Source: an uncultured bacterium (GTDB lineage: Bacteria > Armatimonadota > HRBIN16). Taken from it: DNA of 64,000 nt. The notes under the pieces are model-generated. The model did no database searches. It saw only the letters and a list, made by a program, of their open reading frames with translations, and was not told the DNA's origin. Made by a program: the position numbers and the translations under genes. Below, piece after piece: positions 25,190 through 64,000 of the stretch. Numbering within the stretch: position 1 is the first letter of the stretch; the number at the start of each line of letters is the position of its first letter. The stretch covers positions 6,288 to 70,287 of the forward strand of contig CAZYPZ010000023.1 in the NCBI GenBank assembly GCA_964650005.1, written 5' to 3'.

Positions 25190-25190
25190 C

Positions 25191-29323: not shown

Positions 29324-29332
29324 CAGGTTTAC

Positions 29333-31093: not shown

Positions 31094-31144
31094 GAACCGC
31101 CCGCACGGGAACATTACCGTTACACCGAATGGGAGTCCGTCGCC

Positions 31145-32359: not shown

Positions 32360-32375
32360 CAGGAGCTGATATCCC

Positions 32376-33750: not shown

Positions 33751-34401
33751 ATGGACGACGCACATTATATGCCTGAAGAGCCGAAGTCACCGCCGCCGAG
33801 TACTCGGCCCAGCGCGCGCGAACGCATACTGCGGGCGGCTGAAGCCTTATTTGCCGAGCGTGGATTCGATCAGTCATCTGTCGGCGAAATCGCCTATCGC
33901 GCCGGCGTAAACCGTGCGCTGTTGTACTACTATTTTCGTCAAAAGGACGATATCTACCGGCAGATCATGATCGAGGGAATGAGCCTGTTGAGGCAGGTCA
34001 CCAGCAATGTGCTGGAGCCGGGAATGACTGTGCGCGAGGCGGTGGGGGCGTTCATCGACGCGTATCTGGATATGGCAAAAACACACCCCGGGCTGGTGCG
34101 GATTGTTTACAGAGAGATCGTAGGCGCCCAACATCAGGACAGCGAGTCCCGTGCATTTGTCGACGAGTTTGTCGGCACCATCTGGATGTTGCGCGCGGTG
34201 CTGGAGCGCGGTATTCAGGCGGGCGAGCTGGCGCCACATGACCCGATCAAGGGGGTCATCAGCCTGTTCGGATTGACCAATGTGTTCATAACCGTCGATT
34301 ATCTCGACGGCGCGAGCTTCTCCCGAGAAGAGGTACGCGACCACATCCTGCGTGTGTTTTTCGAGGGACTGGGAACGGCCAGGGACGGAGCCGGTTCATG
34401 A
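33751..34401 (+). CDS. TetR/AcrR family transcriptional regulator
   Basis: HTH region RERILRAAEALFAERGFDQSSVGEIAYRAGVNRALLYYYF. Confidence 0.85.
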   Translation: MDDAHYMPEEPKSPPPSTRPSARERILRAAEALFAERGFDQSSVGEIAYRAGVNRALLYYYFRQKDDIYRQIMIEGMSLLRQVTSNVLEPGMTVREAVGAFIDAYLDMAKTHPGLVRIVYREIVGAQHQDSESRAFVDEFVGTIWMLRAVLERGIQAGELAPHDPIKGVISLFGLTNVFITVDYLDGASFSREEVRDHILRVFFEGLGTARDGAGS

Positions 34402-35420
34402 AACCGGATTACACCCAGTTCGTACGCGTGCTGCAGCGAACCCGGCGTCCTGATCACCTGCCTCTTTATGAGCACATCGCCAGTCCCGGGTTCATCGCGC
34501 GGGCCACTCAGTCGGATTTCGATCGGCGGCCGCAAGACGAGACCTATTGGCGCATCTATGTTCAGTTTTGGATGGACATGGGGTTCGATGTCGTTCCGCT
34601 GGAGGTTCCCTTGAACCTGCCTGCGCCGGCTGCGCAGGCGGGAGAAAGCTTCGAGAGCGAGGCGTTTGTGGTCATTCGCAGCGCTGACGACTTCGACACG
34701 TATCCCTGGCCCGAGGAAGACAACGCACTGGATTTCAGCGTATTCGAGCGCGTGGCGAACCTGTTGCCCGATGGCGCCAAACTGGTTGCCGGGGTGTGCA
34801 TGGGCCCCTACGAACACGTCTCGCGCATGCTGGGAACGATCGGTTTGTCCTACTTGCTGGCGGATGATCCCGATCTGGTTCAAGCCATGTTTGACCGTAT
34901 CGGTCGGTTGATTGTCTCGGTGGATAAACGCCTGGCGGCGATGGATGCGGTGTGCGCCGTGCGGCAGGGCGACGATCTGGGCTTCAAGACCGCCACGTTC
35001 CTGTCGCCGGCTCAGTTGCGGCGATATGTGTTTCCGATATACGCTCGGCAGGTGCAGGCGGCCCACGATCAGGGTAAACCCTTCGTACTGCATTCCTGTG
35101 GTCAACTCAGCGCGGTGTATGACGATCTGATCGACTTCTGCAAGATCGATGCCAAGCACTCGTTCGAAGACCAGATCATGCCGCCTTATGAGTTCAAACG
35201 GCTATACGGCGACCGGGTGACGGCGTTGGGTGGTCTGGATGTGGACACGATCTGCCGTTCGGATGAGGTCCATCTGAGGGCTTATACGCGCCGAATGATC
35301 GAAGCGTGCTTTGCCGATGGCTGGTGGGCGCTGGGCACCGGCAACTCGTTGACAGATTACATGCCGGTTGAAAACTATCGGATTGTGCTTGACGAAGCGC
35401 AACGCGTGCTGAACGGTTAA
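34398..35420 (+). CDS. Uroporphyrinogen decarboxylase (URO-D) family protein, MtaA/CmuA-like methyltransferase candidate
   Basis: LSPAQLRRYVFPIY and HSCG motifs typical of URO-D-fold proteins. Overlaps the tetR stop (ATGA). Confidence 0.6.
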   Translation: MKPDYTQFVRVLQRTRRPDHLPLYEHIASPGFIARATQSDFDRRPQDETYWRIYVQFWMDMGFDVVPLEVPLNLPAPAAQAGESFESEAFVVIRSADDFDTYPWPEEDNALDFSVFERVANLLPDGAKLVAGVCMGPYEHVSRMLGTIGLSYLLADDPDLVQAMFDRIGRLIVSVDKRLAAMDAVCAVRQGDDLGFKTATFLSPAQLRRYVFPIYARQVQAAHDQGKPFVLHSCGQLSAVYDDLIDFCKIDAKHSFEDQIMPPYEFKRLYGDRVTALGGLDVDTICRSDEVHLRAYTRRMIEACFADGWWALGTGNSLTDYMPVENYRIVLDEAQRVLNG

Positions 35421-51108: not shown

Positions 51109-51121
51109 GCTTTTGTCGACC

Positions 51122-51151
51122 GGTGCGGACAGAGGCCGAGCTGTCCGCACC
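51122..51151. terminator. Bidirectional hairpin between convergent genes (11-bp perfect stem GGTGCGGACAG / CTGTCCGCACC, 8-nt loop)
   Basis: Lies between the GH3 gene (+) stop and the thioredoxin-like gene (-) stop. There is no clear U-tract. Confidence 0.45.
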
Positions 51152-51156
51152 ACGGA

Positions 51157-51618
51157 TCACCGGTTGAGTTTCAAACCGCGCAGAACCTCGCTGAATGCGG
51201 AGCCGTCGAGATAGCTGTCCACAACCCCGCCGGGTATGTCCTTGCCGGAGCTGTCCTTGAACACCAGGGTGGGGAATCCGGTCACCCGGTACCGGTCCAC
51301 CAATTGCTGTTTATCCGGTGGCAACGGCTTATCGGTACAGTCGACCATCAGGATATCCGTATTCTGCAGCAACGAGACCACTCGTTTATCTGTCAACGTA
51401 TCCGACAGCATCATTTTGCAGTAACCGCACCATTCCGCGGTGAAGAACAGCATGACAGAGCGGTTGTTACGCACCGCCTGCTTTTCCCGTTCCGGAGTCC
51501 AGGTTTGTGGGGTCAGCGCATCGGTGCGCGTTTGCCAGTTGAGCATCAGAGCCAGCGCAACGCCGACCAACGTAAGCACCGCCAGCAGCGGCAGACTGGA
51601 TCGTTGATGTGGCCTCAT
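51157..51618 (-). CDS. Thioredoxin-like fold protein (membrane-anchored)
   Basis: WCGYC motif. Start chosen at MRPHQRSSLPLLAVLTLVGVALA. Confidence 0.6.
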   Translation of the reverse strand: MRPHQRSSLPLLAVLTLVGVALALMLNWQTRTDALTPQTWTPEREKQAVRNNRSVMLFFTAEWCGYCKMMLSDTLTDKRVVSLLQNTDILMVDCTDKPLPPDKQQLVDRYRVTGFPTLVFKDSSGKDIPGGVVDSYLDGSAFSEVLRGLKLNR

Positions 51619-51737
51619 GGTGATCCTCCCGCAAACGTGTCTCTGTGTCATGATATCCGACGAGCACGGCGCCTACCACAAGATAACCCGTTGCTGATGG
51701 GGTACCATGGGTTTATCGTCGCCATCAGGAGTACGCC

Positions 51738-51998
51738 ATGGCGCCCCGACAATGTCCCGGTCAGGATAGCCGATATTGGAAACCTGAAGACATCTACGAC
51801 GTGCCCTGTACCAACTGCGGCTTACCGATGGAGTTCTTCAAGACCGACCTGCGGCGAGCGTGCCCGCAGTGTGGCTCGCTCAATGTAAACCCCCGTAACG
51901 ATATGTCCTGCGCAGCGTGGTGCAAGTCGGCACCGGAGTGTCTGGCCCAACTGGGTATCGTGCTGACAGACGGTTCGGATCAGCAGTCATCCGGATAA
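51738..51998 (+). CDS. Small Cys-rich zinc-ribbon protein (86 aa)
   Basis: AGGAG RBS 6 nt upstream. CTNCG...CPQCG plus a C-terminal CAAWCKSAPEC cluster. Lies immediately upstream of the CODH/ACS cluster. Confidence 0.5.
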   Translation: MAPRQCPGQDSRYWKPEDIYDVPCTNCGLPMEFFKTDLRRACPQCGSLNVNPRNDMSCAAWCKSAPECLAQLGIVLTDGSDQQSSG

Positions 51999-52014
51999 TC
52001 GAACAGGCTATTTG

Positions 52015-52098
52015 TACCAGATGCCCTTACTCAAGTCATTCATCTACCAAATGTTGCGTAAACCATGTCGCTAAATGGTCGAATATTACCAAATGCCC
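52015..52098. promoter_or_regulatory. Three direct repeats TACCA(A/G)ATG(CCC) in an AT-rich region upstream of cooC
   Basis: TACCAGATGCCC at 52015..52026, TACCAAATG at 52045..52053 and TACCAAATGCCC at 52087..52098. The spacings of 30 and 42 bp keep the sites on the same helical face. Confidence 0.4.
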
Positions 52099-52217
52099 GC
52101 ACGAAATTACTAAGTCGATGCCGACGCGCTGGTCTGACAATATAGTGACATGCCGAGCGCTGCTTCCCGACAGCCGAGAAACATGCGCCCTCACGTCAGA
52201 TCGGCAAAGGATCGTGT

Positions 52218-53027
52218 ATGTCGCTCAAACTGGCTATCTCAGGCAAAGGCGGAGTCGGAAAGTCGACCGTCTGTGGAGTGCTCGCCCGCCTGTATGCAGC
52301 ATCCGGTCGACCTGTTCTGGCTATCGATGCCGACCCGGACGCTAACCTCGCCTCCGCGTTGGGCATGCCCGCAGAATTGCAGGCTTCCGTCCGCACCATC
52401 TCCGAACAGCGCCGCTTGGTCGAAGAGCGCACGGGCGCCAAGGCCAACCAGTACGGCCAAGTGTTCACCATCAACCCCGATGTGTCCGGTATTGCCGAAC
52501 AGTACGCAGTACGCCATGCCGGTGTGGATTTGCTGGTGCTGGGGGGGATCCCCAGTGCGGGCGGAGGGTGCAACTGTCCGGAGAGCGTGCTGCTGAAGTC
52601 GCTGGTACGGGAACTGGTACTGAAGCGCGATGACGTGGTGCTGCTGGACATGGAGGCGGGCATCGAGCACTTGGGGCGCGGCACGGCGATGGGAGTGGAT
52701 TTAATGCTGGCGGTTGTGGAACCCGGGCGACGCAGCGTGGATACCGCCGCACGCGTCCATCAGCTGTCTGCAGGCATCGGTATCCGTCAATTTGCCATTG
52801 TCGTCAACAAGGCCACCGATCCGGATGCTGACCGTCAATGGGTGTCAGACATGTATGGTGACGCGCCTATCTTGGGTGTCATACCGTATGATGCCCGCAT
52901 CGGAGAGGCTGACCGTACCGGCCGGTCGGTGGTGGATCTCAACGAACCGCCCCTGATCCAGCCATTTCAACAGATCTTGGAAGTCATCACCGAGCGTTAC
53001 GAGCGACACGATAGGAAACATTCATAA
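52218..53027 (+). CDS. cooC: CODH/ACS nickel-insertion accessory ATPase CooC (MinD family)
   Basis: LAISGKGGVGKST deviant Walker A and a CxC motif GGCNCPE; 269 aa. Confidence 0.85.
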   Translation: MSLKLAISGKGGVGKSTVCGVLARLYAASGRPVLAIDADPDANLASALGMPAELQASVRTISEQRRLVEERTGAKANQYGQVFTINPDVSGIAEQYAVRHAGVDLLVLGGIPSAGGGCNCPESVLLKSLVRELVLKRDDVVLLDMEAGIEHLGRGTAMGVDLMLAVVEPGRRSVDTAARVHQLSAGIGIRQFAIVVNKATDPDADRQWVSDMYGDAPILGVIPYDARIGEADRTGRSVVDLNEPPLIQPFQQILEVITERYERHDRKHS

Positions 53028-53052
53028 TATCGCCAATTCTGGAGGAGTGATC

Positions 53053-54102
53053 ATGGGTTTTGCACCGAAATGTCTGGCGACAGCCATAGGAAGTCTGCCC
53101 CACGCCGCTGCGGAGGATGCTGTCAATGTCGTTCTGGCCAGCATACCGTCTGCACCGATCTGGCCGCAGCTTCCAGCCAATGGAATGAACGAGCAGATGG
53201 AGATCCAGTATTCCGAAGGCATGCCTCGCGTGGTGATCGATCGTGAGAAGGAGCGCATGTACTTCGATACCTCCGGCGACTATTCCATGGATCTGGCTAC
53301 GTTCTATGAGAACTACATTGTGGAGAATTTCGATTATTTTCAGATCACGCCGGAGTTTTCCAAGGGTATCTACGCGCTCGAGTCGGTTTTACAGGCACAG
53401 GGCGGCAAAAGGCCGTTCGTGAAAGTGCAGACCACGGGACCGATGAGTTTCGGGTTGACCATCGTCGATGAAAACAAACGGGCGATCTTCTATAACCCGG
53501 AGTTTATCGATGTGGTGGTCAAGGCCCTGGCGATGAAGTGCCGCTGGCAGATCCGCAAGTTCCAGCCATATGCTGAACAGATCATCTGTTTCATCGACGA
53601 ACCGATCCTTTCCGCATTTGGCTCATCCACGTACGTCAGCGTCAGCCGTGATGATGTGGTGGCGAAGTTGAACGAAGTGGTCGAGGCGGTGCATGCCGAC
53701 GGCGCTCTGGCCGGAGTGCACTGCTGCGGCAATACCGAGTGGTCCATCTTGATAGACGCCGGCGTCGACATCGTCAACTTCGATGCGTTTGATTTCGGCG
53801 ATACCATCGCGTTGTACCCACAGGCGGTGAAGGCGCATCTGGAGGCCGGAAAGGTGCTGGCGTGGGGTGTGGTGCCCACCAACAGCGCCAAGATCCAGCA
53901 GCAGACTGTGGAGACGTTGATCGCCAAGTTCGATGAAGGCGTGGACAATCTGGCCAAGGCTGCCGGTATCAGCCGAGATCTGATCATCCAGCAGGCGATC
54001 ATCACGCCGTCCTGTGGTACAGGCTCGCTGCCGGTGCCCGATGCGGAACGGGTGTTCGATCTGCTGGGCCAGTTGAGTGCTGTTTTGCAGCAGAGACTGT
54101 AG
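53053..54102 (+). CDS. Single-domain MetE-like methyltransferase (core-MetE-like; cobalamin-independent methionine synthase catalytic-domain family)
   Basis: Strong GGAGGAG RBS. ICFIDEP (IQIDE-like) motif, VHCCG (H-x-C zinc ligands) and ITPSCGTG (SPDCGL-like Cys ligand). About 350 aa with no N-terminal MetE barrel. Confidence 0.6.
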   Translation: MGFAPKCLATAIGSLPHAAAEDAVNVVLASIPSAPIWPQLPANGMNEQMEIQYSEGMPRVVIDREKERMYFDTSGDYSMDLATFYENYIVENFDYFQITPEFSKGIYALESVLQAQGGKRPFVKVQTTGPMSFGLTIVDENKRAIFYNPEFIDVVVKALAMKCRWQIRKFQPYAEQIICFIDEPILSAFGSSTYVSVSRDDVVAKLNEVVEAVHADGALAGVHCCGNTEWSILIDAGVDIVNFDAFDFGDTIALYPQAVKAHLEAGKVLAWGVVPTNSAKIQQQTVETLIAKFDEGVDNLAKAAGISRDLIIQQAIITPSCGTGSLPVPDAERVFDLLGQLSAVLQQRL

Positions 54103-54115
54103 CCGAGGCGGATCG

Positions 54116-54907
54116 GTGCCGAAGTACACCATCGCATTGACGGGCAAAGGCGGAGTCGGCAAGACCACGCTGGCCTCACTGATCATCCGATGGCTGGTGT
54201 CTCAGGGAGAGACCCCTGTGCTGGCTGTCGATGCCGACTCCAATGCCAATCTGGACGAAGCGTTGGGCGTATCGTACACGGCCACCGTGGGAGGCATACG
54301 TGAGGACGCCCTGCGCATCGCCAAGGAGTTGACGGGTATCTCCAAACAGGAGTTTTTGGACCTGCGTGTTCAGGAGGCTCTGGTGGAATGCGAAGGGTTC
54401 GACCTGATCGTCATGGGGCGACCGGAAGGTCCCGGCTGTTACTGCTTCGCGAACAATGTGCTCCGTGACGTTATCCGCAAACTGTCGGATAACTACCGGC
54501 ACGTGGTGGTGGATAGCGAAGCGGGGCTGGAACACCTTTCGCGGCGGACGCTTCTGAAAGTGGATCTGCTGTGCATCGTGTCTGACTGCAGCGTGCGGGG
54601 TGTGCGAACCGCTGCGCGCATCGCACAATTGACCGATGACATGGGCACTCCGGTGGCCCATAAAGGGCTGATCATCAACCGTGCACCCGGCGGGGAGCTC
54701 ACGCAGCGGTTGCGCGATGAAGCGCAGGCAACGGGGCTCCCCCTGCTGGCCGTCATCCCGATGGATGACCAGATTGCTGCGATCGATGCCGATGGCAGCG
54801 CCATCAGTCAACTGGCCGGCGACTCACCGGCCAGTGAAACGCTGGGCGACATGCTCAGACGGTTTATGGAGTCCGCGATGCAGCCGGTCGAACCGGCGCA
54901 TCCGTAG
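54116..54907 (+). CDS. cooC: Second CooC/AcsF-type nickel-insertion ATPase
   Basis: IALTGKGGVGKTT Walker A and a CxC motif GPGCYC. GTG start; an alternative GTG at 54077 is possible. Confidence 0.8.
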   Translation: MPKYTIALTGKGGVGKTTLASLIIRWLVSQGETPVLAVDADSNANLDEALGVSYTATVGGIREDALRIAKELTGISKQEFLDLRVQEALVECEGFDLIVMGRPEGPGCYCFANNVLRDVIRKLSDNYRHVVVDSEAGLEHLSRRTLLKVDLLCIVSDCSVRGVRTAARIAQLTDDMGTPVAHKGLIINRAPGGELTQRLRDEAQATGLPLLAVIPMDDQIAAIDADGSAISQLAGDSPASETLGDMLRRFMESAMQPVEPAHP

Positions 54908-54973
54908 TACCGAAACACCCGCTGGCGCACCGTTCATGACGCCAGGCGACGACACATAAGGAGCCGACACGTA

Positions 54974-56926
54974 ATGCCGAACGAAACCAACAGACCGAAC
55001 CAGGCGTCTGTATCGCACGACCCCGCGATCAATACCCTGGTGGAGTTCGCGCAGGGAGAGGGAATCAATACCGTCTGGGATCGCTACCGGACACAGCAGC
55101 CGCAGTGCAAGTTCGGCGCCACCGGGGTGTGCTGTCGTCTGTGTCACATGGGCCCCTGTAGGATAACCCCCAAAGCGCCCAAAGGTATCTGCGGAGCGGA
55201 TGCCGACACCATTACCGCCCGGAATCTGCTGCGCGAGATCGCCGCTGGCACCGCCGCCCACTCCGACCATGGTCGCATGCTGGTGCGCACCCTGATGGGC
55301 GTGGCGCGTGGAGAGGGCGGGCCTTACAAGATCACCGATGCGCGCCGGTTGCGTGAGATGGCCGCGTTTTTCGATATCGAGACGGAAGGCCGTGACGACC
55401 TGGCGATTGCAGGCGACTTGGCCCAGTTCTGCATGGATCAGTTCGCGTGGTCGGAAGAGCCGAACAAAACGCTCAAACTGGCCCCGGAAAAACGGCAGGA
55501 GTTGTGGCGCAAGATGGAACTGGAGCCGCACGGCGTCGACTCCGCGGTAGTCGAGTTGATGCATCGCACGCACATGGGCGTGGATCACGACTATCGGCAC
55601 CTGATCAGCGGCGGGCTGCGTTGCAGTCTGGCGGACGGCTGGGTTGGCTCGATGATCGCCACCATGGTGTCCGATATCCTGTTCGGAACACCCAAACCGA
55701 TCCGCAGCCGGGTCAACCTGGGTGTGCTGGCCGAAGACAAGGTCAACATCATCGTCCATGGCCATGAACCGACGCTCTCCGAGATGCTGGCCACGGCTTC
55801 GATCGATGAGGAACTGCTGGCGTATGCACGCTCGAAGGGCGCCGCGGGCATCAATATCGCGGGTATCTGCTGTACCGCCAATGAGGTGCTGATGCGCCAT
55901 GGATTGCCCGTTGCAGGCAACTTCCTGCAGCAGGAACTGGCGATTATCACCGGCGCGGTCGAAATGATGATCGTGGATGTGCAGTGTGTGATGCCCTCTC
56001 TGCCCGAAGTGATGAAATGCTTCCACACCAAGCTGATCAGCACATCCGAAATCGCCCAGACGTTCAACGCCGAACAGATAACATTCGATGTGCAGGAGGG
56101 ATATGCCCATGCCTGCCGGCTGATCCGCATGGCGATCGACAACTTTGAGAACCGGGAAAGCAGCCGTGTGCGGATCCCGAACCAGTCGATGGAGCTGATC
56201 GCCGGATTCTCGAACGAGACCATCTTTCATATGTTGGGTGGCCGGTTCCGCAGCACGTTCCGCCCCTTGAACGATGCAATCATCGACGGACGCATCCGGG
56301 GGGTGGTGGGCATCGTGGGATGCAGCAACCCCAAAGTCCGCACGGATGACTCACACATCGCTTTGACTCGCGAACTGATCAAGAACAACGTGCTGGTGCT
56401 GCAGACCGGCTGCTCGGCGATCGCCTGCGCCAAAGAGGGGCTGCTGGTGCCGGAGGCGGCCCTGGAATGCGCCGGTGAGACGTTGCGGGAGGTATGCGAA
56501 GCGGTGGGTATTCCCCCGGTGCTGCACATGGGATCGTGTGTCGACAACAGCCGCATCCTGATGGCCGCCACCAACGTCATACGCGAAGGCGGACTGGGTG
56601 AGGATCTGTCAGATCTGCCGGCCGCAGGCGCCGCACCGGAATGGATGAGCGAGAAGGCGGTGGCGATTGGTCATTACTTCGTGGCCAGCGGTCTGTATGT
56701 CGTTTTGGGCCATCCGCTGTACGTGGAAGGCAGCGAAAACGTGACTCGGTTGCTGTGCGAGGAGATGACGGACATCACCGGCGGTCGTTTCGAGTGGGAG
56801 CCGGATCCGGTGGCCGCCGCGGGAAAGATCTTGGCGCACATCGAGGCAAAACGCGATGCGCTGGGTATTAACACCCGCAAGGAACGCAAGCTATATGACA
56901 TGAAGGAGCGGAGGGAACTGGCATGA
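54974..56926 (+). CDS. cooS: Anaerobic carbon-monoxide dehydrogenase catalytic subunit (CooS/AcsA)
   Basis: N-terminal CKFGATGVCCRLCHMGPCRI B/D-cluster motif and 650 aa. The TGA overlaps the acsB ATG in an ATGA arrangement. Confidence 0.9.
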   Translation: MPNETNRPNQASVSHDPAINTLVEFAQGEGINTVWDRYRTQQPQCKFGATGVCCRLCHMGPCRITPKAPKGICGADADTITARNLLREIAAGTAAHSDHGRMLVRTLMGVARGEGGPYKITDARRLREMAAFFDIETEGRDDLAIAGDLAQFCMDQFAWSEEPNKTLKLAPEKRQELWRKMELEPHGVDSAVVELMHRTHMGVDHDYRHLISGGLRCSLADGWVGSMIATMVSDILFGTPKPIRSRVNLGVLAEDKVNIIVHGHEPTLSEMLATASIDEELLAYARSKGAAGINIAGICCTANEVLMRHGLPVAGNFLQQELAIITGAVEMMIVDVQCVMPSLPEVMKCFHTKLISTSEIAQTFNAEQITFDVQEGYAHACRLIRMAIDNFENRESSRVRIPNQSMELIAGFSNETIFHMLGGRFRSTFRPLNDAIIDGRIRGVVGIVGCSNPKVRTDDSHIALTRELIKNNVLVLQTGCSAIACAKEGLLVPEAALECAGETLREVCEAVGIPPVLHMGSCVDNSRILMAATNVIREGGLGEDLSDLPAAGAAPEWMSEKAVAIGHYFVASGLYVVLGHPLYVEGSENVTRLLCEEMTDITGGRFEWEPDPVAAAGKILAHIEAKRDALGINTRKERKLYDMKERRELA

Positions 56927-59900
56927 GTAAAGTCATCGCTGCATCGGCGATCCGCGGAGCGCATCGGGTGGTCGCCGACGCCGAGGCCATGGTGTCAAAG
57001 GCGTTGGAAGCGCATGGCGAAGACTGCCCGGTCGGTTTCCCCGATACCGCATACGCGTTGCCGGTCATCAACTCCCTGCTGGGTATCGAGGTCAAAAAAC
57101 TGGGCGATATGCGCCCGGTGCTGGACGAGTGCCGCAGTCTGCTCACCACCGCGCCTGAAGACGATGTCTGGCTGCCGTACTTGGGTGCGACACTGGACGC
57201 CGGCATGGCCACATTGTTCGCCTTCGAGCTGATCGAAGCGATCAAGTATCTGGATGGGCCGCATCCCGTGAACGGCATATGGCTCGGCGCCGCCAGCGAT
57301 GTGATCATCCGGGAGCGCGGCATCGAGTTCGTGGACGGCTCCGCACCGGGATTCGCGGCGATTGTCGGCGCAGCTCCGGACAACGAGACCGCGGTGAAAA
57401 TCGCCCGGGAACTGCAGGAAAAGAACCTGTATGTGTTCATCGCCGGGGAGACCAATGGCGTATCGTTTGCCGAGCAGCTGGCTGAAGCCGGAGTGGAACT
57501 GGGCTGGGACACCCGGCTGGTGCCGTTCGGGAAAGACATCTCCGCGGTGATTTATGCGCTGGGGTTCGCCAACCGGGCGGCGCTGTCATTCGGCGGCGTC
57601 AAGCCGGGCGATTACTCACGCAATTTGAAATACAACAAGAACCGTATCTTCGCGTTCGTAATCGCGTTAGGCGAAGTCGACGAGGTGAAGTACGCCGCAG
57701 CCGCGGGTGCGATCTCGTACGGCTTTCCGACCATAGCAGATACGGCGATACCGCAGATTTTGCCGACGGGCATCTGTACTTACGAACATGTGGTCTCTTC
57801 GGTGCCGCATGACCGCATTGTGGAGAAGGCTCTCGAGGTCCGCGGTTGCAAGATCAAGATCACTAAGGTGCCCATTCCCGTGTCGTATGGCGCGGCGTTC
57901 GAAGGGGAACGGATTCGTAAAGAACAGACCTACGTGGAGTTCGGCGGGAACCGTACGCATGCGTTCGAGTATGTGTGCACGCGGGAAATATCCGAAGTGG
58001 AAGATGGCAAGATCACGGTCATCGGTCCCGAGATCGACGATGTGGAGGTCGGTTCATCACTGCCGTTGGCCATCTGGGTGGAAGTGGCCGGGCGCAAAAT
58101 GCAGCCCGATTTTGAGCCGATCCTGGAGCGCCAGATACATCACCTGATCAACGGCGCCGAGGGCGTATGGCACATGGGGCAGCGCGATATCATCTGGGTG
58201 CGCATCAGTAAAGGCGCGCAGGCCAAGGGGTTCAAGATACGTCACTTGGGTGAGATCATACGCGCCAAACTGTTGAGTGACTATCCCGCGATTGTCGACA
58301 AGGTGCAAGTGACGCTGTTCACAGACGCCGCCGAGGTGGAAACACGGCTGGCCGAAGCGCGGCGTGTGTACCGAGAGCGCAACCTGCGCGTGGAGTCTCT
58401 CACCGACGACAGTGTCGATACCTTTTACTCCTGTCTGCTGTGCCAAAGCTTTGCACCGAACCACGTATGCGTCATCACACCTGAACGACTGGGTTTATGT
58501 GGCGCGTATAACTGGCTGGACGGAAAAGCCGCGTACGAGATCGATCCGACAGGACCTAACCAGCCGCTGGTCAAGGGTGAATGCCTCGATCCGATCCGGG
58601 GGCAGTGGAAGAACATCAACGATTATGTCTATGTCAACTCCAAACAGACCATCAAGGCGTTCAATGCCTATTCGATGCTGAAGGATCCCATGACCAGCTG
58701 CGGCTGTTTCGAGGCGATTGTCGCGATGCTGCCGGAGTGCAACGGTGTGGCGATCGTCAACCGGGAGTACGGCGGCGACACGCCCATGGGCATGAAGTTT
58801 TCCACGCTGGCAGGGATTACGGGCGGCGGTCAGCAGACCCCCGGATTTATCGGTGTCGGCAAAGCGTATATCTCCAGCCGTAAGTTCATCTCGGCGGAGG
58901 GGGGCCACAAGCGGATCGTCTGGATGCCGGCGGAGTTGAAGCAGACGCTTCGGGAAGAGCTGATGCACATCGGTGAGCAGCTGGGGATACCCAACTACAT
59001 CGACATGATTGCGGATGAGCAGAACGCCGGCACCGATACGGCCTCGGTCATCGCGCACATGCAGAAGATGGGACATCCCGCTCTGGAGATGTGGGATATC
59101 ACGCAGTCGTCGCCGGAGCTGGCGGCATTTGACGCTCAGCGGGGTGTCGCCTTGGAAGAGTCCGCAGCTGCCAGCGCTCAGCCGGCGCCCGCGCCGAAGC
59201 CTGCTCAAGCGTCCGTACCGGAACCTGTCGCGGAAACGCCTGCGCCGACTGCGGCAGTCTCCTCCGAGCCGACTTCAGCCGTCAGTGAGTCTGCGCCGGC
59301 AAGTGTTGTCACCAACGCTCCTAGCGCTCCGGTCGCTCCGTTGCAGACACAGGGCATCGACTATGTGATGTCGGTACTGGACCGGATGCGCAGTCAGGGA
59401 TTGCCGACTGCCGGTCCGGATGCGTCCCCCGAACAGCAGCTGGCGGCGTTACAGGCATCCACCGCACTGAACCTGTTGACCGCGGGCGCGAACATGCTGT
59501 TGATGTACAGCGGATTGCTGGGCGCCATACCCGCGACGCCCGTAACCCCTGTGTCCACCCCTGCCTCTGCGCCGCCGGAACCCGCCGCGCCGGCCGAGCC
59601 TGTGACGCAGTCAGTGCAGGCTCCAGCTCCTCCGGCAGTCGAGGCGCCGCCTCCGGTACGTCCGGTGACTTCTGCGCTGATCGTCACGCCGACCACGGTC
59701 CCCACCTACAGTGACGCTTCCGCCATGGCGGTGCGCACGGTGACATTGGGAGGGAGCGGCACGCGCACCTCTGCGGTCACCATCGGCGGTGCCGAGGTAA
59801 TGCCGTTCCGCCACTATGAGGGGAACGCGGGACATCGCCCGGTGATCGCCATGGAGGTGTTCGACCAGCTGCCCAGAAACTATCCGGACAGCCTGAGAGA

Positions 59901-60651
59901 CGCGTATGGACAGCTGTTGGACGATCCCGCGGCCATGGCCAAGTACTGCGTGGAGCAGCTCAAAGCGGAAGTCATCAGCGTGCGGCTGGAAAGCGCTCAT
60001 CCGGACCAAGGGGATGCATCGCCTGCGGCCTGTGTGGACTTCATCCGCCAGATCATGCAGGCGGTGGGGGTGCCCATTATCGTCACCGGCCCGGCGCATT
60101 ACGAGAAATGCAACGCGGTGATGAAGGAGGTGGCCAGCCAGTTCGCCGGTGAGAACCTGTTGCTGAACTGGGTGGAGACCGACAACTACAAAACAATTGT
60201 CGCCGCCGCCATGGCGTATAATCACTGCGTCGTCACACAGACTCCGATCGACGTGAATATGGCCAAGCAGCTCAACATCCTGTGTACCAACATGGGGCTG
60301 GCGCCGGACAAGATCGTGATCGATGCGTTGACCGGGGCCTTGGGATATGGTCTGGAGTATACCTACTCGGTGATGGAGCGCATCCGTTCTTCTGTGTTCA
60401 CCGGTGATGCGATGCTGGCCATGCCAATGCTGGTGACGCCGGGGTATGAGGTGGCGAAGATCAAGGAGAGCAAAGCGCCGGCAAGTGCTTTCCCGCTGTG
60501 GGGGCCTGAGTCCGAGCGCGGCGCACTGCTGGAAATCGCCACTGCAATGAGTCTGCTGAATGCCGGTGCGGATCTGCTGGTGATGTACCACCCGACGGCG
60601 GCGCGTACGGTGGGACAGAAGATCGCCGATATGACCCGGGTAGCTGGGTGA
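56923..60651 (+). CDS. acsB: Acetyl-CoA synthase beta subunit (AcsB/CdhC) fused via an Ala/Pro-rich linker to the corrinoid Fe-S protein small subunit (AcsD/CdhD)
   Basis: GFPDTAYALPVI (matches AcsB GYPDTAYYLPVI). A-cluster ligands CLLCQSF...C...C and SCGCFE. Residues roughly 745-905 are Ala/Pro-rich. The C-terminal roughly 330 aa match AcsD (LGGSGTRTSAVTIGGAEVMPFRHYEG, AGENLLLNWVETDNYK, SVMERIR). Confidence 0.85.
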   Translation: MSKVIAASAIRGAHRVVADAEAMVSKALEAHGEDCPVGFPDTAYALPVINSLLGIEVKKLGDMRPVLDECRSLLTTAPEDDVWLPYLGATLDAGMATLFAFELIEAIKYLDGPHPVNGIWLGAASDVIIRERGIEFVDGSAPGFAAIVGAAPDNETAVKIARELQEKNLYVFIAGETNGVSFAEQLAEAGVELGWDTRLVPFGKDISAVIYALGFANRAALSFGGVKPGDYSRNLKYNKNRIFAFVIALGEVDEVKYAAAAGAISYGFPTIADTAIPQILPTGICTYEHVVSSVPHDRIVEKALEVRGCKIKITKVPIPVSYGAAFEGERIRKEQTYVEFGGNRTHAFEYVCTREISEVEDGKITVIGPEIDDVEVGSSLPLAIWVEVAGRKMQPDFEPILERQIHHLINGAEGVWHMGQRDIIWVRISKGAQAKGFKIRHLGEIIRAKLLSDYPAIVDKVQVTLFTDAAEVETRLAEARRVYRERNLRVESLTDDSVDTFYSCLLCQSFAPNHVCVITPERLGLCGAYNWLDGKAAYEIDPTGPNQPLVKGECLDPIRGQWKNINDYVYVNSKQTIKAFNAYSMLKDPMTSCGCFEAIVAMLPECNGVAIVNREYGGDTPMGMKFSTLAGITGGGQQTPGFIGVGKAYISSRKFISAEGGHKRIVWMPAELKQTLREELMHIGEQLGIPNYIDMIADEQNAGTDTASVIAHMQKMGHPALEMWDITQSSPELAAFDAQRGVALEESAAASAQPAPAPKPAQASVPEPVAETPAPTAAVSSEPTSAVSESAPASVVTNAPSAPVAPLQTQGIDYVMSVLDRMRSQGLPTAGPDASPEQQLAALQASTALNLLTAGANMLLMYSGLLGAIPATPVTPVSTPASAPPEPAAPAEPVTQSVQAPAPPAVEAPPPVRPVTSALIVTPTTVPTYSDASAMAVRTVTLGGSGTRTSAVTIGGAEVMPFRHYEGNAGHRPVIAMEVFDQLPRNYPDSLRDAYGQLLDDPAAMAKYCVEQLKAEVISVRLESAHPDQGDASPAACVDFIRQIMQAVGVPIIVTGPAHYEKCNAVMKEVASQFAGENLLLNWVETDNYKTIVAAAMAYNHCVVTQTPIDVNMAKQLNILCTNMGLAPDKIVIDALTGALGYGLEYTYSVMERIRSSVFTGDAMLAMPMLVTPGYEVAKIKESKAPASAFPLWGPESERGALLEIATAMSLLNAGADLLVMYHPTAARTVGQKIADMTRVAG

Positions 60652-60664
60652 AGGGAGAATAACG

Positions 60665-62011
60665 ATGGCTCTTTCCGGACTGGATATCTTCAAACTGCTG
60701 CCCAAGACCAACTGCGGTGAGTGCGGGGTGCCCACGTGCATGGCGTTCGCCATGAAACTTGCCTCCAAGAACGCGGAACTGGCCGCCTGTCCATACGCCT
60801 CCGAGGAAGCAATCGCCAAGATAGGCGCCGCCAGCAAGCCGCCGATCCGGTTGGTGAAAATCGGGCCGGCCGAGAGCGAAGTCGCGGTGGGAAACGAAAC
60901 CGTGATGTTCCGCCATGAGAAGACGTTCGTTCACCAGACCGCGTTCGCTGTCGCGTTCTCGGACGCGCAATCGAGCACGGAGTTGGCCCATTTGACCGCA
61001 GACTTGCGCGAGTACTGCCTCGAACGTGTCGGCGAGCAGCTTCGGCTGGATCTGGCGCTGGTGGACAACACCACCGGCGATGTGGAGCCGTTCGTGGCCG
61101 CGGTCAAAGCGGTCGCCGGCGGTACGGGACGCGGTGTGATCTTGAAGAGCGGCAATCTGGACGCCCTGGATGCGGCGTTGAATGTCCTGCCGGGGCAGCG
61201 TCCGTTGATCCATGCCGCCACTTCTGAAAACGCAGACGCCGTTGCGGCGCTGGCGTTGAAACATAAAGCGCCGGTTGTGGCAACGGCGACCGGCTTGGAT
61301 GAACTGGCGGCCTTGACCCAGCGCCTTCAGGGCTTGGGCGTAACGGACATCGTACTCGAGATCCCGTCGGATAATCCGGCCGCAGTGCTGCAGTTCAACA
61401 CGATCATGCGCAAAGCCGCTCTCAAGGGGCCGTATGAACCGATGGGGTATCCGATACTCAACATGGTCGTCGGTCAAGATATGGCATCGATGGTTGCCGA
61501 TGCGTCCACATTCATCTGCAAATACGCGTCGATACTGGTGATCGATTCGCTGGCCTATCAGGCGCTGCTTCCGTTGATGATGTTGCGGCAGAACATCTAT
61601 ACCGATCCGCAGAAGCCGATTCAGGTGGAGCCGAAAGTGTATGCGATCGGCGAAGCGCATGAAAACTCCCCGGTATTCGTGACCACAAACTTCTCGTTGA
61701 CCTATTTCATCGTCAGCGGGGAACTGGAAAACTCCGGCGTGCCGGCACACCTGGCGGTGGTGGAGTGCGAAGGCATGAGTGTGTTGACTGCCTGGGCGGC
61801 GGGTAAGTTCTCGGGAGAGAAGATCGCCGCTTTCATCAAGTCCTCCGGTCTGGAGAATCAGGTGAAGACACGCAAACTGGTCATACCGGGCTACGTGTCG
61901 CAGATCAGCGGTGAGCTGGAAGATGCGTTGCCGGGCTGGGAGGTAGTCGTCGGGCCGCAGGAGGCGTCGGACATCACTGCGTTTATGAAAATCTACGCGG
62001 CGGCAGGCTGA
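60665..62011 (+). CDS. acsC: Corrinoid iron-sulfur protein large subunit (AcsC/CdhE)
   Basis: N-terminal LPKTNCGECGVPTCMAFAMKLA [4Fe-4S] motif, a TIM barrel and a C-terminal B12-binding domain; 448 aa. Confidence 0.85.
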   Translation: MALSGLDIFKLLPKTNCGECGVPTCMAFAMKLASKNAELAACPYASEEAIAKIGAASKPPIRLVKIGPAESEVAVGNETVMFRHEKTFVHQTAFAVAFSDAQSSTELAHLTADLREYCLERVGEQLRLDLALVDNTTGDVEPFVAAVKAVAGGTGRGVILKSGNLDALDAALNVLPGQRPLIHAATSENADAVAALALKHKAPVVATATGLDELAALTQRLQGLGVTDIVLEIPSDNPAAVLQFNTIMRKAALKGPYEPMGYPILNMVVGQDMASMVADASTFICKYASILVIDSLAYQALLPLMMLRQNIYTDPQKPIQVEPKVYAIGEAHENSPVFVTTNFSLTYFIVSGELENSGVPAHLAVVECEGMSVLTAWAAGKFSGEKIAAFIKSSGLENQVKTRKLVIPGYVSQISGELEDALPGWEVVVGPQEASDITAFMKIYAAAG

Positions 62012-62069
62012 CGGAATGCCTGCCGGTACATACAAAACATCCGATATGAGCCGGGGGCGCAGATAGCAG

Positions 62070-63989
62070 ATGCCCGTCGTACGGTTTCTGCCTGCCGATA
62101 TCGCCGTTGAGGTCGAGCCGGGTGTGATGATCCATGAAGTGGCCATCAAGGCGGGACTCGAGGATCTTCACCTGCCATGCGGAGGCAAGGGCACATGCGG
62201 TCGGTGTCAGGTCGAGGTGGTTCAGGGCGACTTTCAACCGAGCAGCACGCGGTTGGAGTCCGCCTTGGCCACCCGGGGGCTGGTACTGGCCTGCCGCACG
62301 CGGGTCAACGGAGATATGACGATCCGATTGCGCCAGCGTCAGGAAACCGGCATCAAAGCGATGGGGGACAGTCAGTTCCTGATCAGCGACGAGTACCTGC
62401 CGGATCCCAACTCCCTGACACCGTTGTACACCGCCCATCAGGTCACCGTTCCTCCTGCGTCTGTCGAGGAGCATTACAGCGACTGGCAGCGCTTGGTGCG
62501 CGCCTTGACCCGTGATACCGGCGCGATCACCGTCACCGCCGATGCCGCCGTGCTCCGCGGGCTCGCTGAAACGGTGCGTGCCGAGGATGGACGTGTAACC
62601 GCGATCGTTCAGGAAGACGATGGAATGCTGCAGGTGCTTGACGTTTGGCCAGGACATCGGCCGACGCGGGCTTTAGGGCTGGCCATCGATGTGGGGACGA
62701 CCACTGTGGCGGTGCAACTGGTCAATATGCTGGATGGATCGGTTATAGCCAGCCGAACGGCGTACAATACACAGATCAGCCGTGGTGCGGATATCATCAC
62801 GCGTATTGACTACGCCAGAACGCCGGAACGGCTTCGGGAACTCACCAATATGGTGCTGGCGACCATCAACAGCCTGGTCGAAGAGCTGGCGGATGAGTCA
62901 CAGATTGAAGCCGACAACATTCATGCGGCGTTTATTGCGGGTAACACCACGATGATCCATCTGTTGCTGGGGTTGCCGCCGCGTTATATCCGCGAGGCCC
63001 CGTACGTCCCCACCGTAAATGCGGTTCCCGCGCTGCTGGCTGTCGAAGTCGGGCTTGCCATCCATCCGAAGGCGGTGGTCGCGTTCGCTCCGGGAGTAGG
63101 CAGCTATGTCGGCGGAGATATCACCGCCGGTTTGCTCTGTACGGAGTTTCTGTCGAACAGCGAAGAGGTGTTCCTGTTTCTCGATATCGGCACGAATGGG
63201 GAGATCGTGTTGGGTAACGCCGACTGGATGGTCACGTGCGCCTGCTCGGCGGGACCGGCGTTCGAAGGGTCGGGCATCAAATGCGGGATGCGCGCTTCGG
63301 AAGGAGCCGTCGAGTATGTGTCGATCACCCCGGGTGGCGAAACCGTCCGTTGCGATGTAATCGGTGACGGCAAGCCGGCCGGTATATGCGGCTCCGGGCT
63401 GATCTCACTGCTGGGCGAGCTGCTGCTCAGCGGTGTGATCGACCAATCGGGGCGTTTCAACACCGACCTGCCTACAGGTCGGTGGGTAGAGTGCGGTGGT
63501 ACGACCGCCTATGTGATTGCCCGGGCCGAGGAGACGCTGTCCGGTGAGAACCTGGTGATTACCGAGGCGGACATCGAAAACCTTATGCGTACCAAGGCGG
63601 CCATTTACGCAGCCTGCGCGTTGATCTTGAACAACGTGGGGCTTGAATGGAGCGCCATATCCCGGATATTCATCGCCGGCGGTTTTGGACGGTATATCGA
63701 CATCCAGGACGCCATACTGATCGGGCTGCTTCCCGATCTGCCGGCTGACCGCTTCCGCTACATTGGCAACTCTGCGCTGACCGGCGCCTATATCGCGTTG
63801 CTGTCGCGCGAACATCGGCAGCGGTTGATGCAGATCGCCTCGGCGATGACGTATATAGACTTGAGCAGCGATCATCGGTATATGGATAGTTATCTCGGGG
63901 CGCTGTTTTTGCCCCACACCGATCTGTCACAGTTTCCATCGGTCAGCGGCCGGTTGGCCGCGCTGAAAGAAGCCGTGTCAGGCGCCTGA
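62070..63989 (+). CDS. Reductive activator of corrinoid protein (RACo-like; N-terminal [2Fe-2S] ferredoxin domain plus ASKHA ATPase)
   Basis: LHLPCGGKGTCGRCQV plant-type ferredoxin Cys motif, followed by a roughly 500-aa actin-like ATPase; 639 aa. Confidence 0.75.
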   Translation: MPVVRFLPADIAVEVEPGVMIHEVAIKAGLEDLHLPCGGKGTCGRCQVEVVQGDFQPSSTRLESALATRGLVLACRTRVNGDMTIRLRQRQETGIKAMGDSQFLISDEYLPDPNSLTPLYTAHQVTVPPASVEEHYSDWQRLVRALTRDTGAITVTADAAVLRGLAETVRAEDGRVTAIVQEDDGMLQVLDVWPGHRPTRALGLAIDVGTTTVAVQLVNMLDGSVIASRTAYNTQISRGADIITRIDYARTPERLRELTNMVLATINSLVEELADESQIEADNIHAAFIAGNTTMIHLLLGLPPRYIREAPYVPTVNAVPALLAVEVGLAIHPKAVVAFAPGVGSYVGGDITAGLLCTEFLSNSEEVFLFLDIGTNGEIVLGNADWMVTCACSAGPAFEGSGIKCGMRASEGAVEYVSITPGGETVRCDVIGDGKPAGICGSGLISLLGELLLSGVIDQSGRFNTDLPTGRWVECGGTTAYVIARAEETLSGENLVITEADIENLMRTKAAIYAACALILNNVGLEWSAISRIFIAGGFGRYIDIQDAILIGLLPDLPADRFRYIGNSALTGAYIALLSREHRQRLMQIASAMTYIDLSSDHRYMDSYLGALFLPHTDLSQFPSVSGRLAALKEAVSGA

Positions 63990-64000
63990 CTCCTGCCGGA

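Follow-up and report, generated by a model that had tools for sequence, protein, structure and literature searches.

Results

An uninterrupted acsB::acsD gene in a CODH/ACS operon

The window, as we call the whole 64-kb stretch of DNA that was analysed, carries a CODH/ACS operon in which acsB and acsD form one reading frame of 1242 aa with zero internal stops (Table 1). The ATG of this gene overlaps the stop codon of acsA (ATGA), and acsC starts 13 nt past its own stop; acsC and then RACo follow the fusion directly, and in the same order, in every fused lineage. Pfam places CODH_A_N at aa 22-110, CdhC at 318-472, ACS_CODH_B_C at 483-724 and CdhD at 942-1173. A promoter and terminator scan gave no signal exceeding chance.

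Table 1. Features of the operon and of the fusion protein, with positions in the window.
Feature	Position	Strand	Evidence
cooC/acsF-like P-loop Ni-insertion ATPase; opens the conserved operon	52218..53027	+	Pfam, NCBIfam
UROD/MetE-superfamily protein, conserved, uncharacterised, without Pfam match; same operon type	53047..54102	+	–
Second cooC/acsF-like P-loop ATPase	54077..54907	+	Pfam, NCBIfam
acsA (Ni-CODH), translationally coupled to the fusion	54974..56926	+	PF03063, E 4.5e-172
acsB::acsD fusion gene	56923..60651	+	Pfam and NCBIfam domain matches
Complete bacterial-type ACS, domains A1-A3, aa 1-727	56923..59103	+	PF18537/PF03598/PF19436; NF040764; 9fr0_A alignment
A-cluster [4Fe-4S] and bridging Cys motif, C504-x2-C507-x8-C516-x9-C526	58432..58500	+	alignment to ChACS
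Cys593-Gly594-Cys595, Ni-binding motif of the A-cluster	58699..58707	+	alignment to ChACS
End of A3 and conserved post-ACS tail, HPALxMWDITxPSPEAAAxDAxRG, aa 718-745	59074..59157	+	conservation, AF2
Disordered arm 1, aa 746-805, Ala/Pro/Val/Ser/Thr-rich	59158..59337	+	AF2, composition, homologs
MID module, aa 806-868	59338..59526	+	AF2 helices, conservation, hhalign
Disordered arm 2, aa 869-929, Pro/Ala-rich	59527..59709	+	AF2, composition, homologs
Complete AcsD (CFeSP small subunit) TIM barrel, aa 930-1242	59710..60648	+	4djd_D alignment, Foldseek, NF003376
AcsD barrel segment homologous to MID, GYGLEYTYSVMERIR ... ALLEIATAMSLLNAGADLLVMYHP	60349..60588	+	hhalign
acsC (CFeSP large subunit: FeS domain, TIM barrel and corrinoid domain)	60665..62011	+	Pfam; NF003195, 549 bits
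RACo (reductive activator of corrinoid protein)	62070..63989	+	Pfam

The ACS half

The N-terminal part of the chain matches the NCBIfam model CODH_ACS_al_bet (NF040764) over aa 10-726 with 1061.8 bits (cutoff 800), and residues 10-727 align with residues 25-728 of the 732 in ACS from Carboxydothermus hydrogenoformans (ChACS, PDB 9fr0_A). Domain A1, which consists of a prismane-like helical region and a Rossmann fold and binds CODH, is represented by PF18537 and by the ChACS alignment that begins at residue 10; A2 and A3 are represented by PF03598, PF19436 and the full ligand set of the A-cluster. In this cluster four Cys residues hold the cubane and a Cys-Gly-Cys motif the two Ni. The first-pass annotation had stated that all these ligands are present, and they were indeed found (C504, C507, C516, C526 and C593-G594-C595), in stretches that match ChACS residue-for-residue and nearly invariant among 59 homologs. 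The predicted activity of the fusion is that of AcsB, which forms acetyl-CoA from CO, CH3-Co(III) and CoA.

The AcsD half

Residues 930-1235 align with residues 7-315 of the 323 in Moorella AcsD (4djd_D; E 1.5e-83, 44% identity), and the AF2 model of this half superimposes on the same chain with a TM score of 0.89 and an rmsd of 1.9 Å over 307 columns (Foldseek). It has the DHPS-like TIM barrel of the CdhD family over the full length and carries no cofactor domain; most of it was modeled with pLDDT above 90. The earlier claim that a complete AcsB and a complete AcsD share a single ORF is therefore borne out by Pfam, NCBIfam and the structure alignments alike. The delta-subunit model NF003376 matched aa 933-1238 with 361.6 bits (cutoff 280), and it is on this match and on the structure that the membership of the fused AcsD in the delta-subunit family rests. 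The canonical WLP_AcsD model (NF040759) was not reached, the score being 255 bits against a curated cutoff of 430, and for this reason we regard the fused AcsD as a divergent AcsD subtype.

That score could also be read as a sign that the fused barrel has lost its CFeSP role, AcsC being served by a canonical stand-alone acsD at another genomic site. This is very improbable in view of the full-length similarity to the Moorella protein and the constant placement of acsC and RACo directly after the fusion. The barrel is, moreover, the best-conserved portion of the C-terminal half of the fusion, with many invariant columns, and neither another acsD nor a second acsB was found within the 64-kb window. 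With acsC only 13 nt downstream, the fused domain is therefore the only local partner of AcsC, with which it would be expected to pair.

The region between the two halves

About 200 aa (aa ~728-929, nt ~59104-59709) separate ACS from AcsD, arranged as a conserved tail, a first arm, a helical module that we call MID, and a second arm. The first-pass annotation had described a low-complexity linker of about 160 aa, rich in Ala, Pro, Ser and Thr. This holds for the composition of the arms (A 25%, P 25%, V 13%, S 12% and T 10% over both arms of the window protein) but neither for the length nor for the uniformity, since a structured module lies inside. In the tail, the AF2 model has a helix at aa ~731-748. 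Arm 1 has a pLDDT of about 41-50 and varies in length and sequence; arm 2, also variable, has about 46-75 and falls below 50 in short stretches only. Among homologs the arms have a median length of ~57 aa each and remain in frame despite the variation.

MID spans ~63 aa with a pLDDT of 86-90 and has helices at aa 811-825 and 836-862. The stretch AALQxSTAxxLLxAGANMLLM is invariant, and altogether 18 columns are invariant across 12 sequences that are each 48-67% identical to the MID of the window. Comparison with the AcsD barrel by hhalign gave 95.7% and E 1e-8, against 8.7% for the reversed control and at most 1.1% for shuffled ones. The match to the last helices of the barrel is significant, and it makes MID a relic or paralog of the helices that end a barrel of the CdhD type. 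The linker had zero sequence matches among solved structures. When the MID profile was searched against a database, the matches were confined to four short ORFs (56-114 aa), in which MID helix 2 is followed by out-of-frame-looking tails; considered as free-standing MID proteins they were rejected and taken as frameshifted gene fragments. The fusions themselves were also missed, which we put down to the word-seeded method of this search.

No 19-aa stretch of the fusion is more hydrophobic than that in the second helix of MID (KD 1.53), which is for this reason unlikely to be solvent-exposed. A membrane anchor was considered and rejected, because buried segments of the barrel are comparable (KD19 1.53 versus 1.51 and 1.48); charges in the Fibrobacterota equivalents of helix 2 also oppose it. 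Conserved helices between disordered arms are found in each fused lineage. Those of Fibrobacterota and Phycisphaerae have no detectable homology to MID or to each other, so the data do not allow the claim that the linker module arose only once.

The linker bears on whether the two halves of the predicted 130-kDa polypeptide stay joined. Long Ala/Pro-rich disordered arms would be accessible to proteases, and the fusion might merely secure equal expression, with the arms cleaved or AcsD made from an internal start and the mature proteins separate as in Moorella. We give this reading a small chance. No Met ahead of the AcsD domain, nor any start context, is conserved among homologs, a module as strongly conserved as MID is unexpected in a disposable spacer, and the fusion has long been retained across phyla.

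Distribution of the fusion

The search for orthologous fusions in relatives, proposed along with the first-pass annotation, was positive. The ACS C-terminus, MID and AcsD occur together in 128/128 full-length sequences of the fetched homolog set, and the best 120 clusters at 90% identity that were listed all have the same four Pfam domains and lengths of ~1100-1340 aa. Among 80 species-level genome loci, ~38 have the fusion in one unbroken frame, some of them cut by contig ends. The lineages concerned are Armatimonadota, Acidobacteriota, NC10, Fibrobacterota and Phycisphaerae (at least five phyla), and among MAGs from soil, peat and sediment the fused type is widespread. Complete chromosomes in the comparison were OW818647.1, OY781964.1, OY760504.1 and OW818698.1, and chromosomes of 5.3, 8.2, 3.8 and 5.2 Mb are among those with an in-frame fusion.

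More distant relatives have separate acsB and acsD genes. In one group, of Chloroflexota/Actinomycetota type (L048-L051, L062, L064; 44-49% identity to the AcsD domain), acsB abuts a separate acsD, an arrangement from which a missed stop or a frameshift could produce a spurious fusion, and one close relative (L019) appears split. That the fusion arose in this way is nevertheless vanishingly improbable. A single frame runs through all the full-length homologs and the ~38 independent genomes, long-read chromosomes included; the linker varies in length with the frame always kept and holds a module with invariant residues. The split in L019 looks like error-prone assembly, because the same gene contains at least two frameshifts, and L019 was accordingly rejected as a natural split variant. 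The artefact explanation is thus effectively refuted on sequence grounds, in agreement with the original assessment, and by the same evidence the AcsB-AcsD fusion is a genuine gene that has been maintained in evolution.

An unfused sister group of Aminicenantes/Acidobacteriota type (L033-L037, L040, L041) has 52-57% identity to the AcsD domain. Unfused sister operons share the ACS and AcsD families with the fusion, and those of the Aminicenantes type also have the UROD/MetE-like gene; L033 and L034 have in addition a PF02574-like gene. In contrast to the fusion, acsB of the unfused operons ends at the canonical HPVLAMPPLF followed by a stop, with no linker and no MID. The Aminicenantes-type group was considered as a simple fission of the fusion, and a clean break is unsupported, as cooC lies between acsB and acsD in these operons.

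Genes for methyl transfer

No gene for the pterin-binding methyltransferase AcsE (PF00809) was found from the first cooC to RACo in the window, where every gene has another assignment; acsE may lie in another part of these genomes. In relatives a homocysteine-methyltransferase-like gene (PF02574) occupies the usual place of acsE, and in L002 and L061 it is PF02574, not PF00809, that follows RACo. The unusual methyltransferase complement suggests a variant methyl branch. Because no acsE was seen in the flanks examined, the methyl partner and the physiological direction are uncertain.

Discussion

Comparison with known systems

The bacterial systems used for comparison were those of Moorella thermoacetica, Carboxydothermus hydrogenoformans and Clostridium autoethanogenum (PDB 1OAO, 9FR0, 4DJD, 2H9A and 9FZY). 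As the first-pass annotation had stated, AcsB and AcsD are separate polypeptides in the characterised systems, and the solved structures show them as separate chains. Moorella-type CODH/ACS has the same three-domain AcsB with identical A-cluster ligands, the same AcsD barrel, and one operon with acsA, acsC, RACo and cooC-type maturases. The window differs in the single 1242-aa chain with its ~200-aa arm and MID, in the location of acsD between acsB and acsC, and in a UROD/MetE-like gene (with a PF02574 gene in relatives) where no acsE is seen.

Extended Ala/Pro-rich linkers are also known from the E2 chains of 2-oxoacid dehydrogenases, where they let a tethered carrier domain visit several active sites. 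These chains are unrelated to the fusion, and they carry a small lipoyl domain in place of the whole corrinoid protein (AcsD with non-covalently bound AcsC) that would be carried here.

A non-covalent link between ACS and CoFeSP, made by the disordered ends of CdhC and CdhD, has been proposed for the archaeal ACDS (bioRxiv 10.64898/2026.07.07.736967). The complex of Methanosarcina (CdhABCDE) resembles the fusion in that ACS and the CoFeSP small subunit are joined via long disordered regions with a conserved helix, which keeps the catalytic modules locally concentrated yet mobile; the resemblance is one of design only. The archaeal link is made non-covalently by the C-terminal region of CdhC and the N-terminal region of CdhD, whereas here it is a peptide bond, and the archaeal ACS lacks A1, whereas the present one is of the bacterial A1-A3 type. 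The archaeal helix is a Leu-zipper without detectable similarity to MID, which derives from the AcsD barrel, and hexa- to octameric oligomerisation through the N-terminal scaffold of CdhD is an archaeal feature.

It is against this precedent that a scaffolding role has to be weighed, in which MID would oligomerise like the CdhD helix and assemble CODH/ACS-CFeSP units into an ACDS-like supercomplex, tethering alone not being the point. The recurrence of conserved helices between the arms in every fused lineage, the hydrophobicity of MID helix 2, and the descent of MID from the barrel helices of a family with two members, AcsC and AcsD, that pair together all speak for such a role. The MID profile shows no similarity to residues 43-88 of M. 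acetivorans CdhD (hhalign probability 0.2%), and oligomerisation of bacterial CoFeSP is unreported according to the archaeal study (bioRxiv 10.64898/2026.07.07.736967). On balance we consider scaffolding unlikely as the main function, though with an appreciable chance.

A proposed covalent tether for the corrinoid protein

The reading that we favor, with good confidence, is a covalent swinging-arm tether, in which the maintained AcsB-AcsD fusion holds the corrinoid protein at ACS. The domain content, the conservation and the alternation of disorder and helix point to this function. The AcsD barrel would pair with AcsC from the next gene, whereby the whole methyl-carrier protein would be leashed covalently to ACS through the ~200-aa arm. 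The two Ala/Pro-rich segments would supply reach and freedom, so that the corrinoid protein could swing between a methyl donor or its reactivator RACo and a docking site on A1/A3 of ACS. The tether would fix the ratio of the partners at 1:1 and keep their local concentration high. MID would most likely be an element for docking or assembly, which either parks the arm on the barrel surface or links copies by oligomerisation. In cryo-EM structures of the CODH/ACS-CoFeSP complex from C. autoethanogenum the small subunit docks on A1 and A3 of ACS (bioRxiv 10.1101/2024.08.05.606187), and the tethering idea fits because the subunit that is fused here is this very docking partner. The sub-cutoff WLP_AcsD score, the lack of acsE in the flanks and the non-homologous linker helices of Fibrobacterota and Phycisphaerae were counted against the tether.

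Taken jointly, the features may also describe a separate kind of bacterial CODH/ACS machine, used by uncultivated Armatimonadota, Acidobacteriota, NC10, Fibrobacterota and Phycisphaerae, with a leashed corrinoid protein, a MID hub and AcsE-free methyl exchange. The barrel-derived MID hairpin may then be a hub for docking or oligomerisation and the whole a convergent counterpart of the archaeal ACDS supercomplex, and methyl groups may be exchanged by Zn-thiol-type methyltransferases (the UROD/MetE-like and PF02574 proteins) instead of AcsE and methyl-THF. This wider reading is speculative and rather doubtful; if true, acetyl-CoA would be tied directly to the metabolism of methionine or of methyl-sulfur compounds.

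Implications

An AcsB-AcsD fusion is undescribed in the full-text literature searched, with earlier mention in subscription journals possible, and in databases the protein is named only as "subunit alpha/beta". Of all steps of the Wood-Ljungdahl pathway, methyl transfer from the corrinoid protein to the A-cluster is the one least understood, and it requires large transient protein movements. In the fusion the two partners of the last step of the pathway appear to be permanently tethered, and a single ACS-AcsD chain would offer a stoichiometric, self-assembling complex for structural study of this transfer. The fusion is an evolutionary "Rosetta-stone" confirmation of AcsD as the ACS-docking subunit and a bacterial parallel to the disordered-tether organisation recently proposed for archaeal ACDS, and MID makes the arm more than a spacer, as it keeps a trace of the origin of the fusion. 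In MAGs from soil, peat and sediment the CODH/ACS genes are routinely scored as including acsB and lacking acsD, and recognising the fusion corrects such calls of pathway completeness.

A complete AcsB and a complete AcsD on one chain

The acsB::acsD gene (Table) encodes, on one chain, a competent-looking ACS and a complete AcsD, the small subunit of CFeSP, with about 200 mostly disordered residues between them. The first-pass annotation had proposed such a fusion of two complete proteins from the sequence alone, and the proposal was borne out by domain models, structure alignments, cluster ligands and model superposition. Three ACS domains fill the first 60% of the chain, and CdhD is found close to its C-terminal end. 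The bacterial alpha/beta subunit equivalog of NCBIfam matched aa 10-726 with 1061.8 bits (cutoff 800), and the delta-subunit model NF003376 matched aa 933-1238 with 361.6 bits (cutoff 280). In a search of solved structures, residues 25-728 of the 732 in Carboxydothermus hydrogenoformans ACS aligned end to end with aa 10-727, and residues 7-315 of the 323 in Moorella AcsD with aa 930-1235 (E 1.5e-83). The A-cluster ligands, listed as complete together with a CGC motif in the first reading, are indeed all present (C504, C507, C516, C526 and C593-G594-C595), and an AF2 model of aa 728-1242 superposed on Moorella AcsD with a TM of 0.89 and an rmsd of 1.9 Å.

Genes of the acs operon (nt of the window) and parts of the fusion protein (aa)
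Feature	Position	Strand	Description
cooC-like	52218-53027	+	CooC/AcsF-type P-loop ATPase
351-aa protein	53047-54102	+	no Pfam match
cooC-like, second	54077-54907	+	CooC/AcsF-type P-loop ATPase
acsA	54974-56926	+	adjoins 5' end of acsB::acsD
acsB::acsD	56923-60651	+	single unbroken ORF, 1242 aa
CODH_A_N	aa 22-110	+	Pfam
CdhC	aa 318-472	+	Pfam
ACS_CODH_B_C	aa 483-724	+	Pfam
conserved tail after ACS	aa 718-745	+	HPALxMWDITxPSPEAAAxDAxRG
arm 1	aa 746-805	+	variable
MID	aa 806-868	+	sharply conserved, G[IL]xYVxSVLDxxR ... AALQxSTAxNLLTAGANMLLMYSG
arm 2	aa 869-929	+	variable
CdhD	aa 942-1173	+	Pfam
acsC	60665-62011	+	directly 3' of acsB::acsD
RACo	62070-63989	+	after acsC

Distribution of the fusion

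The protein is already deposited in NCBI; its closest named relatives are from Armatimonadota, and annotation pipelines label the fusion only as subunit alpha/beta. Among clusters at 90% identity, the best 120 of 8000 scored (66-82% identity) all carry the four Pfam domains CODH_A_N, CdhC, ACS_CODH_B_C and CdhD in about 1100-1340 aa, and HMMs detected all three parts (ACS C-terminus, linker module, AcsD barrel) in each of the 128 full-length sequences fetched. The C-terminal 442 aa of the fusion were used to scan a single genome from each species, giving 80 loci, each of which was classed by tblastn and open-frame tracing. About 38 of these have an uninterrupted frame from ACS to AcsD, some being cut by contig ends; their hosts are Armatimonadota, Acidobacteriota (Terriglobales, Solibacteraceae), NC10/Methylomirabilales, Fibrobacterota/Chitinispirillaceae and Phycisphaerae/Planctomycetia, and they include chromosomes of 5.3, 8.2, 3.8 and 5.2 Mb. 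Orthologous fusions are thus present in at least five phyla, and a merging of separate acsB and acsD genes by assembly or sequencing error, already doubted in the first-pass annotation, is excluded by this shared architecture.

The sole apparent split, in a Terriglobales MAG (L019; CAVUYK010000021.1, 5605-9245), was rejected as a natural one, since at least two frameshifts, one close to the N-terminus and another directly past the ACS domain, sit in the one orthologous fusion gene; the break is most likely a sequencing error of the long-read homopolymer type. Four short called ORFs (P0289-P0292, 56-114 aa) start at the second helix of the linker module (AALQxSTA..LLxAGANMLLM) and have Arg/Pro-rich tails that look out-of-frame; they probably derive from frameshifted fusion copies in other assemblies.

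At 50% identity about four full-length fused clusters (P0139, P0140, P0142, P0155) were found among 1.84 billion representatives, and the fusion is therefore one well-populated clade and not a common architecture. Five further proteins of 854-1375 aa (P0146, P0147, P0148, P0151 and P0158) have N-terminal additions, their ACS part beginning at residue 172, 342, 703, 475 or 370, and are possibly CODH-ACS or other fusions. The AcsD proteins P0260, P0268, P0278 and P0282 (about 520-530 aa) have C-terminal extensions of about 200 aa.

Anatomy of the linker

The linker was described in the first reading as a low-complexity stretch of about 160 residues rich in Ala, Pro, Ser and Thr. This holds for its Ala/Pro-rich arms, but the linker is about 200 aa long and also contains a conserved tail and a structured two-helix module, MID, as seen in alignments of 25 complete fusions and 59 database homologs. 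The arms have a median length of 57 aa each with a wide spread between homologs (n = 128), and consist of about 19-25% Ala, 19-21% Pro and 11-12% Val; of the 117 arm residues in the window's fusion (A 25%, P 25%, V 13%, S 12%, T 10%), only 2 are basic and 8 acidic. Across 12 MID sequences with 48-67% identity to that of the window, 18 columns are invariant. In an AF2 model of linker and AcsD, run with a 60-sequence alignment, pLDDT was about 41-50 in arm 1, 46-75 in arm 2, 86-90 in MID and above 90 in most of the barrel. MID is modeled as two helices (aa 811-825 and 836-862), of which the second is hydrophobic, on par with buried barrel segments (KD19 1.53).

The 25 complete fusions have no conserved Met ahead of the AcsD domain, and separate translation of AcsD is therefore not a conserved feature. 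That the two halves are set free by post-translational cleavage, or that AcsD arises by internal initiation, is improbable given this lack of a conserved internal start and the conservation of MID inside the linker.

Other fused lineages have linker helices too. Fibrobacterota fusions carry a two-helix element at the position of MID, and Phycisphaerae fusions one amphipathic helix of the LTQQIVREIIGSLSEKFLG type; homology of either to MID was not detectable. Further divergent fused lineages are represented by P0254 (a 485-aa fragment) and P0185, which retain the ACS C-terminal end, and P0198, which is cut inside the linker; all have a linker of acidic or Pro/Glu-rich composition with one amphipathic helix, e.g. 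'SVEQRVERLERAVTTLITSLVDALAEIGE'. Helices set within disordered arms thus recur, and what is general across the fused lineages is the design, one or more conserved helices flanked by disordered arms.

Origin of MID

When MID was used as tblastn query, a second, weaker match appeared repeatedly at the C-terminus of the AcsD barrel in the same ORFs. Profile-profile comparison of the MID and AcsD-domain alignments gave a probability of 95.7% (E 1e-8), with helix 1 mapping to 'GYGLEYTYSVMERIR' and helix 2 to 'ALLEIATAMSLLNAGADLLVMYHP' of the barrel, the two matches being separated by a 27-residue deletion. The reversed alignment scored 8.7% and five column shuffles at most 1.1%, and a MID HMM also picked out these two segments of the barrel in AcsD representatives that are unrelated. 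Judged from these matches, MID most plausibly represents a relic or paralog of the ~85 C-terminal residues of a CdhD-family barrel, which would imply that part of a barrel was duplicated, or that a second barrel decayed, while the fusion formed or afterwards.

Operon and methyltransferase genes

The stop codon of acsA overlaps the start of the fusion (ATGA, 56923-56926), and acsC starts 13 nt past the fusion stop, preceded by AGGGAG (60649-60667); translational coupling of the three genes is tight. At 51000-64000, promoter- and terminator-like sites did not rise above chance. That the fused barrel is purely structural, with a role outside CFeSP, is unlikely because the barrel is conserved and acsC and RACo adjoin the fusion. 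The gene order, with its two CooC/AcsF-type genes, is repeated in an Armatimonadota chromosome (L002) and a Phycisphaerales MAG (L061); the two ATPases are presumably Ni-insertion factors, one each for the C-cluster and the A-cluster.

In these two loci RACo is followed by a homocysteine-S-methyltransferase-type gene (PF02574, E 1e-71; L002:12706-13590 and L061:12879-13856), which among NCBIfam models matches best to the N-terminal half of the bifunctional Hcy-methyltransferase/MTHFR. It occupies the usual place of acsE, and the equivalent position lies just past the window's 3' end. No pterin-binding AcsE-type gene (PF00809) was seen in the L002 and L061 clusters, and the PF02574 gene in the acsE place suggests a non-canonical methyl partner for CFeSP.

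Conservation of the 351-aa protein is high, with 72-95% identity across its best 120 matches. A few copies are named UROD/MetE family protein in NCBI, the match to the MetE NCBIfam model is weak, and its AF2 model (pTM 0.85) retrieved MetE and UROD barrels at a low TM of 0.4-0.55. Its invariant residues H225-C226-C227 and C323 resemble a Zn-thiolate methyltransferase site, which they may form. Where flanks are sufficient, this UROD/MetE-like gene is found together with the fused clade and with the unfused sister group; the PF02574-like gene, where flanks allow, accompanies Armatimonadota-type fusions, several Phycisphaerae fusions and two sister-group loci, and was not seen in Fibrobacterota loci. 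Both are absent from the 37 more distant loci.

About 17 kb upstream of the operon, a TetR-family regulator precedes a second, distinct member of the URO-D family (PF01208, 340 aa; 33751-35420, +), which may act as a corrinoid-dependent methyltransferase or may just be HemE. A type IV pilus/type II secretion-like cluster (21545-33587, +; PilX-like, PilM, PilN, PilO, secretin, PilB-type and PilT-type ATPases, PilC) is unrelated to the fusion.

Evolutionary setting

In a neighbour-joining tree of AcsD domains, which is no more than indicative, the fused forms all fall into a single clade of three sub-lineages, and an unfused Aminicenantes/Acidobacteriota-type group nests inside this clade. In this group acsB has a canonical end, and a cooC gene lies between acsB and acsD. 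Both a single old fusion, followed by loss or rearrangement, and repeated fusion are compatible with the data. In more distant relatives (Chloroflexota, some Actinomycetota) acsB directly abuts a separate acsD, plausibly the pre-fusion arrangement. The spread of the operon across unrelated phyla implies its lateral transfer.

Discussion

AcsB and AcsD are both textbook proteins, and the fusing of interacting subunits is a frequent evolutionary outcome; the fusion therefore does not amount to a new kind of system. No publication describing it was found in the literature searched, of incomplete coverage, and as far as could be seen there, neither the putatively barrel-derived module in the tether nor the non-canonical set of methyltransferases has been reported.

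For archaeal ACDS a non-covalent route to the same goal has been proposed, by way of disordered CdhC and CdhD termini and a CdhD coiled coil (bioRxiv 10.64898/2026.07.07.736967), whereas the link in the fusion is covalent; the AcsB-AcsD fusion is not among the ACS variants surveyed in that study. MID may possibly be an ACDS-like oligomerising element, but it has no sequence similarity to the archaeal CdhD helix, and the likeness is therefore one of design and not of descent.

AcsD and AcsC pair into CFeSP and are separate chains in PDB 4DJD, 2H9A and 2YCL. In the methyl-transfer state of the C. autoethanogenum complex, the CoFeSP small subunit docks on A1 and A3 of ACS, and the FeS domain of the large subunit contacts A3 (bioRxiv 10.1101/2024.08.05.606187). 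MID, with its hydrophobic helix 2 and probable barrel origin, may dock on a protein surface. The fusion would hold CFeSP always close enough to reach the A-cluster, with the two in a 1:1 ratio, and the Ala/Pro-rich arms would supply the freedom for CFeSP to visit RACo and the methyl donor.
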